A stretch of 64,000 nt of DNA from an uncultured Bifidobacteriaceae bacterium (lineage in GTDB: Bacteria > Acidobacteriota > Vicinamibacteria > Vicinamibacterales > UBA2999): assembly GCA_964505975.1 (NCBI GenBank), contig CAZDLW010000001.1, forward strand, positions 25,576 to 89,575, read 5' to 3'. The notes beneath the pieces are model-generated. The model made no database searches. It worked only from the letters and a program-made list of their open reading frames with translations, and was not told where the DNA came from. Below are positions 11,716 through 50,052 of this stretch, piece by piece (position 1 is the first letter of the stretch; every line of letters begins with the position of its first letter). A program made the translations under genes and the position numbers.

Positions 11716-13079
11716 TCGTGACCAAGATGGCCCTGCCCAGGCGGACCTTCCTGCGCGGGGTGGGCGCCACGCTGGCACTCCCGCTGCTGGACGCCATGGT
11801 GCCCGCCCTGACCGCGGTGGCGAGGACTCCCGCCAACGCGGCGCGCCGGATCGGGTTCATCTACATGCCGAATGGGGTGGCGATGAACTTCTCGGGCATC
11901 GATTACTGGACGCCGACCGGAGAGGGCACGACGTTCGAGTTTTCTCCCATCCTGGCCCCGCTCGCGCCCGTTCGTGAACGGCTGCTCGTCATCAGCGGCC
12001 TCTATCAGGAGCAGGCGGAGGCCGGCGACGACGGCGCCAGTGGGGATCACACACGGGGCACGAGCACCTGGCTGACGGGCGTATACCCGAAGCGTACCGA
12101 AGGTGCCGACGTACGAAACGGCATCTCCGCGGATCAGATTGCCGCATCAGCGTTGGGAAAGGAGACGGCGCTCCCGTCGCTGGAGCTCGGCATCGATCTC
12201 AACTTCCTGGCGGGCCAGTGTGAGAACAGCTACAGCTGCGTGTACCTGAACACACTGGCGTGGAGCTCCCCGACGACGCCGCTGCCGACGGAGAACAACC
12301 CGCGAATCGTGTTCGAGCGGCTCTTTGGCGACGGGGGCACCCCTGAAGAGCGAGCGGCTCAGGCCCGAGAGAACCAGAGCATCCTGGATTCCGTGCTCGA
12401 CGATCTGGCGAGGCTACAACGCAGGCTGGGGCCGGGAGACCGGAACAGGGTGAGCGAGTACGTCGAGGCCGTACGCGAGGTCGAGCGGCGGATTCAGCGG
12501 GTCGAACGCCACGCCGACACCGAACTGCCAGCACTGGACCGGCCGAGAGGCATTCCCGAACGCTTCGACGAGCACGTCAAGCTCATGTACGAACTGCAGT
12601 GGCTGGCCTTTCGCGCGGACATCACACGCGTCGTGACCTTCATGCTCGGACGCGAGCTCAACTTCCGCACCTATCCTGAGATCGGCATCACGCAGGGGCA
12701 TCACGGCCTTTCGCATCATGCGAATCGTCCGGATCAAATTGCGCTGTATTCGAAGCTCGGGGTCTATCAGGCGGAGCTGTTCGCCTGGTTTCTCGACAAA
12801 CTGAAGGACACGCCCGAAGGCGACGGCACGCTGCTGGATCATTCGCTGTTCCTCTACGGCGCGGGTCTGAGCGATCCGAACACGCACTCGCACAACGACC
12901 TGCCGTTGACGGTGGTCGGTGGCAAGGGCCAGCTGGAGGGTGGGCGTCATCTGGTGTTTCGCGACCGGCCTCCGATGACGAACCTGTTGTTGAGCCTGCT
13001 CGACAAGGTCGGGGTCCATGCCGACCGCCTGGGGGATAGCACCGGCCGGTTTGCCGGCGAACCGCTCACGGGGGTGTAG
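11712..13079 (+). CDS. DUF1552-family protein (Tat-type signal)
   Basis: It overlaps the upstream gene by ATGA. It has an RRTFLRGVGATLALPLL twin-arginine signal and a GHHGLSHH motif typical of the DUF1552 partners of DUF1592 proteins. Confidence 0.8.
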   Translation: MIVTKMALPRRTFLRGVGATLALPLLDAMVPALTAVARTPANAARRIGFIYMPNGVAMNFSGIDYWTPTGEGTTFEFSPILAPLAPVRERLLVISGLYQEQAEAGDDGASGDHTRGTSTWLTGVYPKRTEGADVRNGISADQIAASALGKETALPSLELGIDLNFLAGQCENSYSCVYLNTLAWSSPTTPLPTENNPRIVFERLFGDGGTPEERAAQARENQSILDSVLDDLARLQRRLGPGDRNRVSEYVEAVREVERRIQRVERHADTELPALDRPRGIPERFDEHVKLMYELQWLAFRADITRVVTFMLGRELNFRTYPEIGITQGHHGLSHHANRPDQIALYSKLGVYQAELFAWFLDKLKDTPEGDGTLLDHSLFLYGAGLSDPNTHSHNDLPLTVVGGKGQLEGGRHLVFRDRPPMTNLLLSLLDKVGVHADRLGDSTGRFAGEPLTGV

Positions 13080-13098
13080 GACTGTTCGGTTTCCTTAA

Positions 13099-13296
13099 TC
13101 CCGGAGCTCAGTGGGGTTGCGACGGAGCGGCGACCTCCGACTCGCGCGACACCAGTCGGGCAAAACGCATCTGGAGCGTGAGGACCGAGCTGGGTTGCGG
13201 GACCCAGCTCTGGTCGCTGGTCGCCGGTGAAGGATGCGTTTTACCGCGCGGAGTCGTCGGGAGCCCGCCCCGTTGCAACTCCACTGAGCTCCGGGA
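13099..13296 (-). repeat. Family-1 element, copy B (inverted orientation)
   Basis: Terminal arms CCGGAGCTCAGTGG (13101-13114) and CCACTGAGCTCCGG (13281-13294). The reverse complement aligns along its full length with copy C. Confidence 0.85.
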
Positions 13297-20916: not shown

Positions 20917-21051
20917 ACCAGCCAAGGGGCTCTGCCCCGTGATATCTCCGCAGAGCCCCTCGGCTGGTTGCCAGTATCTCTTTGCCGCTAGGACCGCTAT
21001 GGGGACCGACAAACGAGTACAAAATTCGCGTTCCGGGCCGCATAGCGGTCC
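20916..21051 (+). repeat. Family-2 conserved intergenic element, copy A (possible cis-regulatory leader)
   Basis: Hairpin 20916-20934/20951-20969 (18/19), shared block CGGCTGGTTGCCAGTATCTC (20961-20980), and an 11-bp helix GGACCGCTATG/CATAGCGGTCC (20991-21001/21041-21051) enclosing ACAAACGAGTACAAAATTCGCGTTCC. A second copy lies at 36002-36210. Confidence 0.7.
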
Positions 21052-21061
21052 AACGCTCGCG

Positions 21062-23363: not shown

Positions 23364-24533
23364 ATGCCACCTCTCGACGATCCTGTCATCGTTCTGCTGC
23401 ACGATCTCGTGGCGATTGACTCGGTCAATCCGCTGCTGGTCGCGGGTGCGCACGGAGAAGCACGGATTGCGAAGCGGATTGCCGCGGAGTTGATTGATAT
23501 CGGACTGGAGGTACACGTCTCGGAAGTCGTCCCGGGCAGGCCCAACGTCGTCGGCGTGCTGCACGGCCGCCACGAAGGCCGCTCTTTGATGTACTGCGGG
23601 CACATGGACACGGTTGGTGTTGCGGGCATGTCCCACCCCTTCGAGCCCGAGGTTCGCAGTGGACGGTTGTACGGGCGCGGTGCGCACGACATGAAGGCCG
23701 GCCTGGCCGCGATGATTGGCGCAGCGCGGCAAGTCGTCGAGCGCGGTGGACTCGATCGCGGCAGGCTGATTGTGGCGGCCGTCATCGACGAGGAGTACGC
23801 GAGTGCCGGCGCGGATGCCCTGGTCACCGAGTGGCGCGCCGACGCTGCCGTGGTGACGGAACCGACCGGTCTCGACATCGCTATCGCGCACAAAGGTTTT
23901 CAGTGGGTGGCCATCGAGACTCGCGGACGGGCCGCGCACGGCAGCCGCCCGCTCGAAGGCCGGGATGCGATCCTGCGCATGGGTCGGATTCTGGCACGGC
24001 TGGAGGCCCTTGACGGCCGTCTCCAACGCGGCCCGGCGCATCCACTGCTCGGCACCGCCTCGCTGCATGCGTCGATCATCGAAGGCGGTGCCGAGCTCAG
24101 CAGCTATCCGGCGCATTGTGTCCTGCAGATGGAACGGCGGACGTTGCCGGGAGAAGCGTCAGACGTGGCAGTTCGGGAGGTACGAGAAGTTCTGGATGCC
24201 CTGCGAGAAGAGGACGCGGAGCTTGAAACCGATGCGCGACTGGTCTTCGGCCGGAACCCGTACGAACTGGACGGGTCGAATCCGCTCCCGGACCTGCTCG
24301 GGGCCGCCGCCGCTGAGGTAAGCTGGCATCCCCGCCACGTTGGAATGACGTTCTGGACGGATGCAGCAATCCTTGGCGGTGCCGGGATTCCGTCGCTCGT
24401 GTTCGGCCCGGGCGGTGGCGGCCTTCACACGCCGGACGAATACGTGCTCATCGATGATGTTCGCCGATGCCGGGACGCCCTGGCCGTGTTCGCCGCGACG
24501 TACTGCGGACACTCGGACTCCCGGGATGTCTAG
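23364..24533 (+). CDS. M20-family peptidase (ArgE/DapE-like deacylase)
   Basis: Motifs YCGHMDTVGV, GRGAHDMKAGLAAM, VIDEEYASAG. Confidence 0.8.
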   Translation: MPPLDDPVIVLLHDLVAIDSVNPLLVAGAHGEARIAKRIAAELIDIGLEVHVSEVVPGRPNVVGVLHGRHEGRSLMYCGHMDTVGVAGMSHPFEPEVRSGRLYGRGAHDMKAGLAAMIGAARQVVERGGLDRGRLIVAAVIDEEYASAGADALVTEWRADAAVVTEPTGLDIAIAHKGFQWVAIETRGRAAHGSRPLEGRDAILRMGRILARLEALDGRLQRGPAHPLLGTASLHASIIEGGAELSSYPAHCVLQMERRTLPGEASDVAVREVREVLDALREEDAELETDARLVFGRNPYELDGSNPLPDLLGAAAAEVSWHPRHVGMTFWTDAAILGGAGIPSLVFGPGGGGLHTPDEYVLIDDVRRCRDALAVFAATYCGHSDSRDV

Positions 24534-24592
24534 AGGCTGCGCCTCGGACCCGCAAGCATGTCGGCGGCGGCTCCGTCTCGCCAAGGCTACGG
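24529..24592 (+). repeat. Family-3 ~60-nt hairpin repeat (REP-like), copy 1
   Basis: CTAGAGGCTGCGCCTCGGACCCGCAAGCATGTCGGCGGCGGCTCCGTCTCGCCAAGG. It closely resembles the reverse complement of 49507-49567 and the split copy at 26738-26756 + 26949-26993. Confidence 0.7.
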
Positions 24593-24711
24593 CGGTCCCC
24601 CGAAGCTTTATGCGGAGGGGAAGGTGGCCCCCACGTACGAACGGTGGCTGGACCATGCCGTCGCCGTCCCGTGACGGTCGAATCGATGTCCCATTTCGTG
24701 GACGCCATGTT

Positions 24712-26711: not shown

Positions 26712-26737
26712 CGTTCAGGCTTCTCACTTGGATGTCC

Positions 26738-26993
26738 AGCGAGGCTCCGCCTACACCGGACCTCACTCGAGTTGCGACGGGGCGGGCTCCCGACGACGTC
26801 GCGCGGTAAAACGCATCCTCCACCCGCGGCCGGCGACCCGAGCTGGGTCCCGCAACCCAGCTCGGTCTTCACGTTCCGGATGCGTTTCGCCCCACTGCTG
26901 TCGCGCGAGTCGTAGGTCGCCGTCCCGTCGCAACTCAACTGAGCTCCGTGATTGGGACCCGCGGGCATGTCGGCGGCGGCTCCCTCTCGCTGG
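26738..26993 (+). repeat. Family-3 hairpin repeat interrupted by a Family-1 element (composite)
   Basis: The left half CAGCGAGGCTCCGCCT (26738-) and right half GGGACCCGCGGGCATGTCGGCGGCGGCTCCCTCTCGCTGG (-26993) match the two halves of the 24529-24592 repeat. They are separated by the Family-1 copy. Confidence 0.7.
26757..26948 (+). repeat. Family-1 element, copy C
   Basis: Arms CGGACCTCACTCGAGTTGCGACGG / CCGTCGCAACTCAACTGAGCTCCG. The core is nearly identical to copy A, and the apex GACCCGAGCTGGGT-cccgca-ACCCAGCTCGGTC is retained. Confidence 0.85.
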
Positions 26994-32565: not shown

Positions 32566-32636
32566 AGATTCCTCCCTGTCACGAACCAGCGGATTATACG
32601 CGGCCGTTCCCCGGGCGACGAGGAATCGCGAAGCCG

Positions 32637-32825
32637 GGTGCCGGCGGCCGGCATGCTGGGCTGGCTCCCGATGACCTCACGCGGAAAAACGCGCCCTCCG
32701 CTCGAGGGGCGACGACCCGCGCTGGTCCGTGACCAGCGCGGCTCTCACGCTGCGGGCGCGTTTTACCCGGTCCGGATCGCGCGAGTCGTAGGTCGCGGCG
32801 TCCAGCATGCCCGGCCGCCGGCACC
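32637..32825 (+). repeat. Family-1 element, copy D (divergent, compensatory variant)
   Basis: Outer helix 32638-32659 / 32802-32824 (~22 bp). The conserved blocks GGCTCCCGATGAC...CGCGGAAAAACGC and GCGTTTTACC...ATCGCGCGAGTCGTAGGTCGC are present. The apex is 32714-32727/32731-32744. Confidence 0.8.
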
Positions 32826-32892
32826 GGCGTCGCTGCACCAACACAAGTGAGCACCGTGGACAGTGCAGAGCGCGTCTCGAGGCGGAGCTTCC

Positions 32893-44663: not shown

Positions 44664-44755
44664 AGGTCAGCCCAGCCGGATTCGAGGTTCAACAGTCGAG
44701 CCGAGTGCCCACATCATCGGGTCATCTTACGGGAACTCGACGGGAAAGCAGCCAC

Positions 44756-44810
44756 GGGGCTCCGCCTCACGTCCTTCGACCGTTGCTCAGGGTCGCGGGT
44801 CGAGGGGGTG
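44756..44810 (+). repeat. Solitary unit related to the 48856-49030 tandem repeat
   Basis: GGGGCTCCGCCTCAC-GTCCTTCGACCGTTGCTCAGGGTCGCGGGTCGAGGG shares the GTCCTTCGAC..GCTC.GG...GGTCGA core. Confidence 0.5.
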
Positions 44811-48855: not shown

Positions 48856-49030
48856 GTCCTTCGACTGTCGCTCGGGACAACCCCGAGTGGGGTCGAGCTG
48901 TCCTTCGACTAACGCTCAGGACTACCCTGATCGGAGTTGAGCGGTGTCCTTCGACTCGCACTCCGGATAACCTCAGTCGGGGTCGACGCGTGTCCTTCGA
49001 CTCTCGTCGAGGACACCCGCGGGCGACGTC
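48856..49030. repeat. Four-unit degenerate tandem repeat (~44-46 bp units)
   Basis: GTCCTTCGACT begins at 48856, 48900, 48946 and 48992. The units share GTCCTTCGACTnnCGCTCnGGAC....GGGGTCGA. Confidence 0.8.
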
Positions 49031-49406
49031 CAGGAGTGGCATCCCTGCCGGTCCCCGTGGCCGGTTTGCCGTAGCTCGTGGCCGCGCATCGCGGGAGGGA
49101 GGAGGAGGGGGCGGCATCGATGAACGGGGCAGTGTAGCGTGTCTCATTCGTACGGGCAAAACACTGGCGCACCCGAGCCCATGCAGAGTGCGGACCGGAC
49201 AGGTCACCTGTGCATCCCTCTTCGATGAGCTTTGCCCCGACCCGTTGACCATGCGGCGGTGCTGCCCCGCCAGCGAGCGTGACGACCGGACCTGTGCGAG
49301 ACGGACGGAACGTTCCGACGAGTGTCGCCACCGACTGGTCCGTTGCAGGCCGCGTGCCTTGCCCCTCAGCTGGACGCGCGCCGGCACCAACGCTGCTGTC
49401 CCGCTA

Positions 49407-49492
49407 GACGGCTTGAACGGCCAGAATCCTTACGAATGAGTCAAGTTTTCGGACCGGCCGTTCAAGACGTCTCGCCCGCACGGAGTGCGGGC
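49407..49492. other. Two adjacent strong hairpins in a non-coding region
   Basis: 49407-49422 pairs with 49456-49471 (15/16, 33-nt loop). 49474-49481 pairs with 49485-49492 (8/8, GGA loop). Confidence 0.7.
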
Positions 49493-49506
49493 AGGAGATA
49501 CGGCCA

Positions 49507-49567
49507 ACCTAGCGAGGCGGAGCCGTCCCCGACATGCTCGCTGGTCTGAGGCGGAGCCTCGCTAGGT
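49507..49567 (-). repeat. Family-3 hairpin repeat, copy 3 (inverted)
   Basis: 12-bp helix 49507-49518/49556-49567. The reverse complement aligns with 24529-24592. Confidence 0.7.
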
Positions 49568-49703: not shown

Positions 49704-50052
49704 ATGTCGATCGACCTGAGAACGACTCCGAGCCGTGGCAACGCCGGACTGGTCGACGTCCTCGATCGCGTGCTCGACAAGAGACTGGTGGTTGCTGGCG
49801 ACATCAAGGTGTCGTTGGCCGATGTCGAGCTGCCGCCTTCTGATCTGCTCGATGAACAAGGCCGAAGAGGTTGGTCTCGACTGGTGGAAGTACGACCGGC
49901 ATCTCTCGCCGGGCCGCGAGCAGATCGCACGGGAGAACGAGGCGCTTCGTGCGCAGGTGCGATCGCTCGAGCGTCGCCTGGCCAACGTGGCGGGGCCCCG
50001 CGTTGCGGAGGCTCTGGGCCACGACTCCAGAAAGGCACGACGACGACGATGA
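49704..50052 (+). pseudogene. GvpA/GvpJ-family gene disrupted by a frameshift/deletion
   Basis: Frame 0 encodes ...[28 protein letters not shown]. The homologous continuation RLLICSMNKAEEVGLDWWKYDRHLS... is in frame +1 from 49834 to stop 50052. Confidence 0.65.

Follow-up and report, generated by a model that had tools for sequence, protein, structure and literature searches.

Nested intergenic repeats in a Vicinamibacterales genome: a probable non-autonomous mobile hairpin element within the loop of a REP-like hairpin

REPINs are doublets of REP (repetitive extragenic palindromic) units that form hairpins and depend on an enzyme encoded elsewhere; they have two conserved REP ends and a less conserved spacer (PMC3116915). 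The terminus of a REP carries the tag GTAG (or CGTC), and REP dimers lie inside longer palindromes in several phyla, as with GTAG-15 of Anabaena, GTAG-23 of Thermomicrobium and CGTC-1 of Halothiobacillus (PMC3733652). The Coxiella repeat QMITE1 has a conserved core and variable ends, as does the element described here, and IS1111 inserts into the REP carried by QMITE2 (PMC5896051). Insertion sequences (IS) within REP palindromes are well known (PMC1525189; PMC12288879; PMC5896051). Here we describe a non-coding hairpin repeat, Family 1 (F1), in a 64-kb stretch of an uncultured Vicinamibacterales genome (contig CAZDLW010000001.1; "the window"). One F1 copy interrupts the loop of a second, REP-like hairpin repeat, Family 3 (F3). 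F1 is best read as a non-autonomous mobile hairpin element, probably mobilized in trans via a folded single strand, and we put the probability of this whole reading at about 0.62.

F3 is a REP-like hairpin with a stem of 10-12 bp (CCWAGCGAGGC/GCCTCGCTWGG) and a loop of about 37 nt. It was found uninterrupted at two places in the window and at one in a relative (contig L004, see below):

24529-24592, + strand: F3 with a degenerate stem, fold z=+0.3
49507-49567, - strand: F3 with a 12-bp stem, z=-2.2/-3.3, abutting a module of about 100 nt at 49404-49506
L004 12593-12650: F3 homologue in the relative, fold z=-6.4

The interrupted copy has the following parts:

26737-26752, + strand: F3 left half, CAGCGAGGCTCCGCCT, located by direct reading; stem CCAGCGAG, then the first loop bases GCTCCGCCT
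26753-26756, + strand: junction ACAC, missing from intact F3; possible weak counterpart (TAGGTC) to the left of F1 copy B
26757-26953, + strand: F1 copy C, of the B/C subfamily; arms plus core 26757-26948; covariance model score 157.8 bits; folds as one long hairpin
26757-26785, 26784-26922 and 26920-26948, + strand: left arm, core and right arm of copy C, followed by the tail (T)GATT
26949-26954, + strand: TGATTG, between the right arm of copy C and the F3 right half
26955-26993, + strand: F3 right half, GGACCCGCGGGCATGTCGGCGGCGGCTCCCTCTCGCTGG; the remaining loop, then stem CTCGCTGG

The right half of F3 was 92% identical to 24546-24581 over 36 nt (blastn against the window, E=1.3e-8), and the left half matched 49549-49563 on the reverse strand at 15/15 positions (E=0.003 in the same search). 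When joined in silico, the halves covered the whole F3 consensus and refolded as a hairpin with a 10-bp stem. F1 interrupts the F3 loop in its 5' part, with GCCT before it and (C)GGACC after it. Because the order and orientation of the two halves are those of F3 and both lie directly beside F1, their joint match to F3 is far beyond chance; 26737-26993 is a real nested insertion, with F1 copy C within the loop of an F3 hairpin. The first-pass annotation of this DNA had seen two halves of one hairpin repeat split by copy C, and this was borne out. Its limits for copy C (26757-26948) were right, but the left half begins at 26737, one base before the 26738 given there. Of the two other F3 copies that it listed, the one at 49507-49567 is well formed, whereas the one at 24529-24592, called intact there, is a degenerate hairpin. 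TGATTG had been taken as junction filler; GATT also follows the right arm of copy B and was therefore assigned to F1. F1 is present outside F3 too, as in copy B, which belongs to the same subfamily as C.

F1 consists of a conserved core of 139 nt and arms of about 25-30 bp, forming units of about 190-270 nt with no open reading frame (ORF). A covariance model (R1) built from the four window cores recovered exactly four copies in the window (135-158 bits; next match 18.6 bits), and F1 was strongly strand-asymmetric, the opposite strand at the same sites scoring 23-33 bits. Besides copy C, these are:

356-623, core 424-561, + strand: F1 copy A; own arms 395-421 / 557-582; 18-nt unpaired tails
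356-376 / 603-623: outermost stem of copy A, a perfect 21 bp, starting 10 nt after a TAA stop
13101-13294, core 13128-13266, - strand: F1 copy B, of the B/C subfamily; begins 22 nt past the stop codon of a DUF1552 gene
32602-32844, core 32662-32798, + strand: F1 copy D, a 243-nt insert relative to the empty site in L004
32634-32659 / 32802-32827: arms of copy D, with a 32-nt left tail and a 17-nt right tail

Beyond the window, a strict 26-nt pattern had no match in 185,579 GTDB species genomes and, among metagenomes, matched one soil contig (L001). A relaxed two-block pattern gave three good copies (118-122 bits) in one Vicinamibacterales metagenome-assembled genome (MAG), JBOGIR01:

L009 7252-7390: F1 copy
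L010 3235-3373: F1 copy
L011 244-382: F1 copy

A relaxed-pattern match in a Chromatiales MAG was set aside as chance, and no F1 was found in viral contigs or PLSDB plasmids. F1 is rare in public data, being present in one Vicinamibacterales MAG and one soil metagenome contig besides the window.

Each F1 copy folds into a single long imperfect hairpin. Eight good copies (A to H) from the three sources gave a consensus of 44 pairs in which 92% of cells were paired, with compensatory changes at 12 pairs; none of 500 shuffles reached the observed values, and slid controls were 30-44% paired, indicating that the hairpin is maintained. Every copy sits between genes, no farther than about 100 nt from a gene end, and orientation to the neighboring genes is mixed (A and E sense; B, C and D antisense). 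The unpaired stretches CCTCCRCC, CTCACG and AGGTCGC were kept in 8/8 copies across the three sources. Core conservation ranged from 70 to 96% across copies, and the arms could not be aligned between subfamilies. The three JBOGIR01 copies were identical over some 115 nt of their core; their differences were clustered in two small stem-loops and the arms (these regions at least 15% different), with 7/9 positions differing in one stem-loop (alignment columns 42-52) and 3-6 positions in the other (columns 110-119). These hypervariable patches pair locally as small stem-loops, not with one another. A bridge-RNA or guide role for them was considered and rejected, as matches to a copy's own flanks were no longer than those to the flanks of other copies.

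Mobility was assessed against relatives. L004, a JGI (Joint Genome Institute) metagenome contig collinear with 18.4-38.1 kb of the window (about 20 kb) and with genes about 85% identical, is by its sequence the closest relative available; L017, from the same sample, spans 8.5-15.3 kb at about 76% identity, and the more distant L016 includes the locus of copy B. No F1 was found in L004, L005, L016 and L017 (about 65 kb of relatives' DNA), compared with four copies in the 64-kb window. At the D site, compared with a long-gap-tolerant aligner, L004 has a clean empty site, GGATTATATGCAAGTGAG (longer context AGCGGATTATATGCAAGTGAGTCCGGT), where the window reads GGATTATACGC, 243 nt and AAGTGAG (longer context AGCGGATTATACGC[243 nt]AAGTGAGCACCGT). 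The junctions are GGATTATAYGC / insert / AAGTGAG, with a duplication or microhomology of at most 1 nt (a single ambiguous C). The 24-26-bp arms of D lie within the 243-nt insert, and L004 shows no hairpin at its empty site. At the B site, the same two genes are separated in L017 by a 31-nt spacer without a hairpin, against 293 nt in the window; the B locus of L016 is also without F1. L004 and L005 carry neither F1 nor F3 at the C site, where their spacer is 127 nt long. Around copy A, synteny with L016 and L017 breaks down.

Since F1 is absent from 3/3 comparable orthologous sites, cleanly at D, it is or was mobile and non-autonomous. The first-pass annotation had proposed this mobility, and had suggested seeking empty sites in relatives. 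F1-free sites were indeed present at B, C and D, but an empty, intact F3 was not found at the C locus, where the spacer of the relative is unrelated. The target-site duplications that it had also suggested seeking were lacking at the clean D site, and a TA duplication was rejected: TA...TA occurs at B only, C reads TA...TG (target TC) and D shows no match.

These observations are best explained by F1 having spread in the window lineage after its split from the nearest sampled relative. The element would enter the DNA between genes, mostly some tens of bases from where a gene ends and facing either way, and would most likely be mobilized in trans by an enzyme whose gene lies elsewhere in the genome. 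As F1 is one conserved long hairpin and left no target duplication at D, the likeliest route would be a folded single-stranded intermediate, as in REPIN/RAYT (REP-associated tyrosine transposase) or IS200/IS605-type elements; both the enzyme class and the single-stranded mechanism are what we infer by analogy with those systems. On this route an insertion would sometimes land in the loop of another hairpin, F3 at C and the 21-bp stem at A. Nesting in an outer hairpin is real for these two copies and as a rule is not shown.

Several points weigh against this reading. No mobilizing enzyme of the kind that the first-pass annotation had suggested seeking was identified: a Pfam scan revealed no transposase-like domain in 47 predicted window ORFs (most of those called) or in the genes beside five other F1 copies. 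Comparing the F1 copies defined neither conserved termini nor a target motif nor a target duplication. The window cores are only 70-90% identical to each other and so give no sign of very recent activity, and the clustered way in which the JBOGIR01 copies differ is better matched by gene conversion or purifying selection acting on the core than by neutral selfish decay. Mismatch counts used to find the folding strand (G-U 11, A-C 5) do not decide the strand, or between RNA and DNA. Finally, the order "F3 first, F1 second" rests on logic, with no intermediate observed, because the relative lacks both F1 and F3 at the C locus.

F1 might instead be chiefly a functional structured element under selection at each locus, either an RNA hairpin (for 3'-end protection, termination or processing) or a small RNA family, with its spread secondary. 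Strong covariation in four helices, the conserved unpaired stretches, the identity of the JBOGIR01 core beside diverged arms and stem-loops, and the location of every copy no more than about 100 nt from a gene end all agree with such a role. However, orientation to genes is mixed, and the absence of F1 at all three comparable orthologous sites shows that no locus needs it. There was no Rfam 15 match at the gathering threshold in the window, L010 or L012, the best sub-threshold E being at least 1.8 with a permissive search included. [quoted passage not shown] We regard a primarily functional F1 as unlikely.

The first-pass annotation offered a model in which only the core of about 139 nt is mobile and inserts specifically into the loops of host terminators or REPs, so that the outer helices are host-derived and each F1 copy has a different, perfect one. 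The position of copy C in the F3 loop fits this, and so does copy A, which is enclosed by a perfect stem that is unique and begins 10 nt past a stop codon. That stem is 21 bp long rather than the 20 bp first given. A paired stem at copy D was also confirmed, but it is not a perfect 22 bp: the arms measure 24-26 bp and contain two 1-nt bulges. No two of copies A, D and E have related arms, as would be so for host-derived helices; the A and D arms recur nowhere else in the window or the loci and so are not members of a known host hairpin family. By contrast, B and C share arms of about 28 nt on both sides, CGGAGCTCAGTGGAGTTGCGACGG.../...CCGTCGCAAC..CACTGAGCTCCG, plus the GATT tail, at 84-92% identity and in different contexts, with 3-4 mismatches in each copy's own stem. 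The three JBOGIR01 copies likewise share arms, with ends CGGCAGCCGT...ACGGCYGCCG, and F1 ends differ between subfamilies. Because arms are common to B and C and to the three JBOGIR01 copies, the arms of F1 belong to the element, travel with it and define subfamilies, A, D and E being other subfamilies. The D arms are missing from the hairpin-free empty site in L004, and the B spacer of L017 likewise offered no hairpin to enter.

Flanking pairing was then compared with 3000 random control positions, using the longest perfect stem between the 70-nt flanks beyond the arms; the RNAduplex energy of these flanks is uninformative in GC-rich DNA (the known F3 case gave p=0.21), and the stem test was used instead. 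Copy A had a stem of 21 bp (p<1/3000) and copy C one of 9 bp (p=0.04) in addition to its F3 membership. Copies E and H were marginal, with 8 bp each (p=0.13 each), and B, D, F and G showed no excess pairing over random positions. Significantly paired flanks were thus seen in only 2/8 copies, and hairpin hosts are possible for A and C alone. The targeting rule was not upheld, nor was the derivation of the outer helices from host hairpins, and we consider the host-loop model as a whole somewhat less likely again than a functional element.

There is also a small chance that F1 is no decaying MITE and that its core, kept by purifying selection as a recognition module or an RNA module, is carried within hairpins that can be exchanged (F3, the copy A stem and the subfamily arms) and is mobilized by an enzyme acting on the loops of single-stranded DNA hairpins. 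As speculative is the corollary that this would be a hairpin-in-hairpin mode of transposition, in which the arms stay paired by the copying of one arm from the other. We keep this carrier scheme in view because the core is conserved while the arms diverge, the JBOGIR01 differences are clustered, target duplication is lacking and two copies are nested.

It is highly improbable that F1 (together with F3 at C) was ancestral and was deleted in the relative. Presence and absence in two genomes cannot be polarized without an outgroup, and hairpins are prone to deletion by replication slippage. However, three independent near-precise losses would be needed, including at D the exact removal of the element with at most 1 nt of microhomology. 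The lack of F1 at B in L016 and throughout the relatives' DNA speaks against deletion too, and other repeat families are likewise precise extra segments in the window. As for a chance resemblance of the flanks to F3, the left half alone is a mere 15-nt match and one F3 copy is degenerate, but alignment statistics rule it out for all practical purposes, given the right half, the order and orientation of both halves immediately beside the F1 ends, and their joint alignment along the entire consensus.

Next to copy B, the DUF1552 gene's final codons and stop (GGGGGTGTAGG, 13068-13082) can pair with CCTAACCCCCC (13283-13296) beyond the copy, over 10 bp with one bulge; alone this pairing was not significant. 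The insertion of copy B may have remodelled the end of the gene, as the four C-terminal residues of the protein differ from those of the relative.

The source strain is also present in three Sequence Read Archive (SRA) runs (SRR9906329, SRR9906330 and SRR16547339), there only as short Logan contigs. Copy C was found in all three samples, and in all three the contigs end a few bases into the F1 core on both sides of it:

window ~26791 and ~26909: Logan contig breakpoints, corresponding to L002/L003 position 1 and the 3' ends of L006-L008

That all of these contigs break in copy C, as a multi-copy repeat would be expected to cause, implies other near-identical F1 copies or variants in the genome.

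The relaxed pattern also picked up a distant cousin family of F1 in another acidobacterial MAG, CAVUXJ01. Its three copies are hairpins of about 330 nt with terminal inverted repeats ACTTTGTCACTTTC... and score 22-33 bits with R1. Apart from the general architecture, they have nothing in common with F1 but the blocks CGCGG.AAAACGC, GCGTTT and TCGCGCGAGTCG:

L012 215-346: cousin family copy
L013 2764-2903: cousin family copy
L015 6805-6947: cousin family copy

F3 and the adjoining module of about 100 nt are joined in both genomes (window 49404-49566; L004 12593-12752), with 72% identity over 174 nt; the module has inverted arms CTTGAACGGCC/GGCCGTTCAAG around GAAAACTTGACTCATT. Since the module accompanies F3 at places that are not orthologous between the window and L004, F3 could be the end piece of a longer repeat, or a small RNA gene. 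A 32-nt stretch beside the F3 copy at 24.5 kb (24620-24651) recurs at an unrelated place in L017 (192-223) with 97% identity and is a short interspersed repeat. At 48856-49035 there are four tandem units of 44-46 nt, each starting GTCCTTCGAC and preceded as a group by an F3-like left half CAGCCCGGCG..GCCGCCCCTC; a solo unit lies near 44770-44791, after a similar F3-like left half at 44749-44769. The tandem units may be another repeat inside an F3-type hairpin.

A second composite repeat has a REP-like hairpin (CCAGCC..GGGGC...GCCCC..GGCTGG) and, after it, a block of 46 nt that is conserved (AACGAGNACNAAATTCGCGTTCC.GGCCGCATAGCGGTCC):

20925-21058: full copy, a precise extra segment of 134 nt relative to L004
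35996-36208: full copy, a precise extra segment of 213 nt relative to L004
60313-60358: a further occurrence

As copies of both F1 and the composite repeat are precise extra segments relative to L004, several hairpin repeat families are colonizing this genome.

The window has a G+C content of 65.7% and carries ordinary chromosomal genes, including those for TonB-type receptors, DUF1552/DUF1592 pairs, FtsH, transketolase, isopropylmalate/isocitrate dehydrogenase and proline dehydrogenase, as well as gas-vesicle genes; the top protein matches were to uncultured Acidobacteriota/Vicinamibacterales. The gas-vesicle genes are of the GvpA type (PF00741, 50127-50456) and the GvpL/GvpF type (PF06386, 53244-54377), with a histidine kinase and a response regulator between them. 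An ORF at 49735-50052 resembles a GvpA-type paralogue and had no Pfam match.

A lineage-restricted family of mobile hairpin repeats is hereby documented in the Vicinamibacterales, an abundant uncultured group of soil Acidobacteriota, with insertion polymorphisms resolved to the base and one element nested within another. Repeats of this type break short-read assemblies, every Logan contig of the strain ending inside F1, and enlarge intergenic regions relative to close relatives; they could mark recent genome dynamics. The conserved core, captured in R1, provides a handle for a census and for the hunt for the mobilizing enzyme. Were the pattern of conserved core and variable arms to hide a single-strand transposition mode directed to hairpin loops, which we think improbable, it would deserve more attention.

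F1 resembles REPIN/RAYT systems in being non-coding, extragenic, multi-copy and present in either orientation, and in forming one long hairpin with compensatory changes and no target duplication. The layout is reversed, however: a REPIN is conserved at its ends (REP plus a flanking 16-mer) and variable in its spacer (PMC3116915), F1 conserved at its center and variable in its arms. In REPIN/RAYT systems the genome also holds a RAYT gene, for an IS200/IS605-like Y1 (HUH) transposase, with the repeats on its flanks. No GTAG/CGTC terminal tag is conserved in the F1 copies; GTAG is seen in copies C and D alone, and there internally, within GAGTCGTAGGTCGC; at this place the other copies read GGAG, ATAG or CGTC. 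Palindrome-associated elements derived from IS200/IS605 insert 3' of a fixed target of 4-5 nt and have distinct subterminal hairpins at their left and right ends. F1 is a single hairpin, and the left flanks of B, C and D (GGTTAGGTC, CCGCCTACA and TTATACGC) have no tetra- or pentanucleotide in common.

Insertion sequences that target REPs (IS1397/ISKpn1, IS621, ISPpu9/ISPpu10 and IS1111) offer a parallel to the nested site, since there too a mobile element splits a REP-like palindrome in two. Those elements are 1-1.5 kb long, encode their own transposase and are strictly site-specific, whereas F1, at 200-270 nt, has no ORF. Its insertions show no strict specificity for hairpin loops: only 1/4 window copies lie in F3 and 2/8 copies have paired flanks, and the B and D empty sites have no hairpin. 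REP dimers embedded in longer palindromes share the arrangement of a palindromic repeat between the arms of an outer palindrome, the architecture that the first-pass annotation had noticed. In those cases, however, the outer palindrome has one consensus per genome and has not been found without its insert; here the outer helices differ and F3 occurs without F1.

In architecture F1 is most like REPINs and palindromic bacterial MITEs; the latter, such as ERIC/IRU of enterobacteria, Correia/NEMIS of Neisseria and QMITE1/QMITE2 of Coxiella, are imperfect palindromes of 100-300 nt, intergenic, often 3'-proximal, in either orientation and without coding capacity. MITEs are short (70-300 bp), non-coding and multi-copy, and F1 is non-coding and occurs at 190-270 nt in four copies per 64 kb. 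To our knowledge, judging from host range and known consensus sequences, F1 has no sequence similarity to the ERIC/IRU, Correia/NEMIS or QMITE families. Typical MITEs mobilized by DDE enzymes carry the terminal inverted repeats of a DDE insertion sequence and a duplication of TA or 2-11 bp; no such duplication was seen at D. The JBOGIR01 subfamily has the ends given above, and the ends differ between subfamilies. With no new system or mechanism shown, F1 is best filed as a new family within the bacterial interspersed hairpin repeats (MITE/REPIN/ERIC-like).

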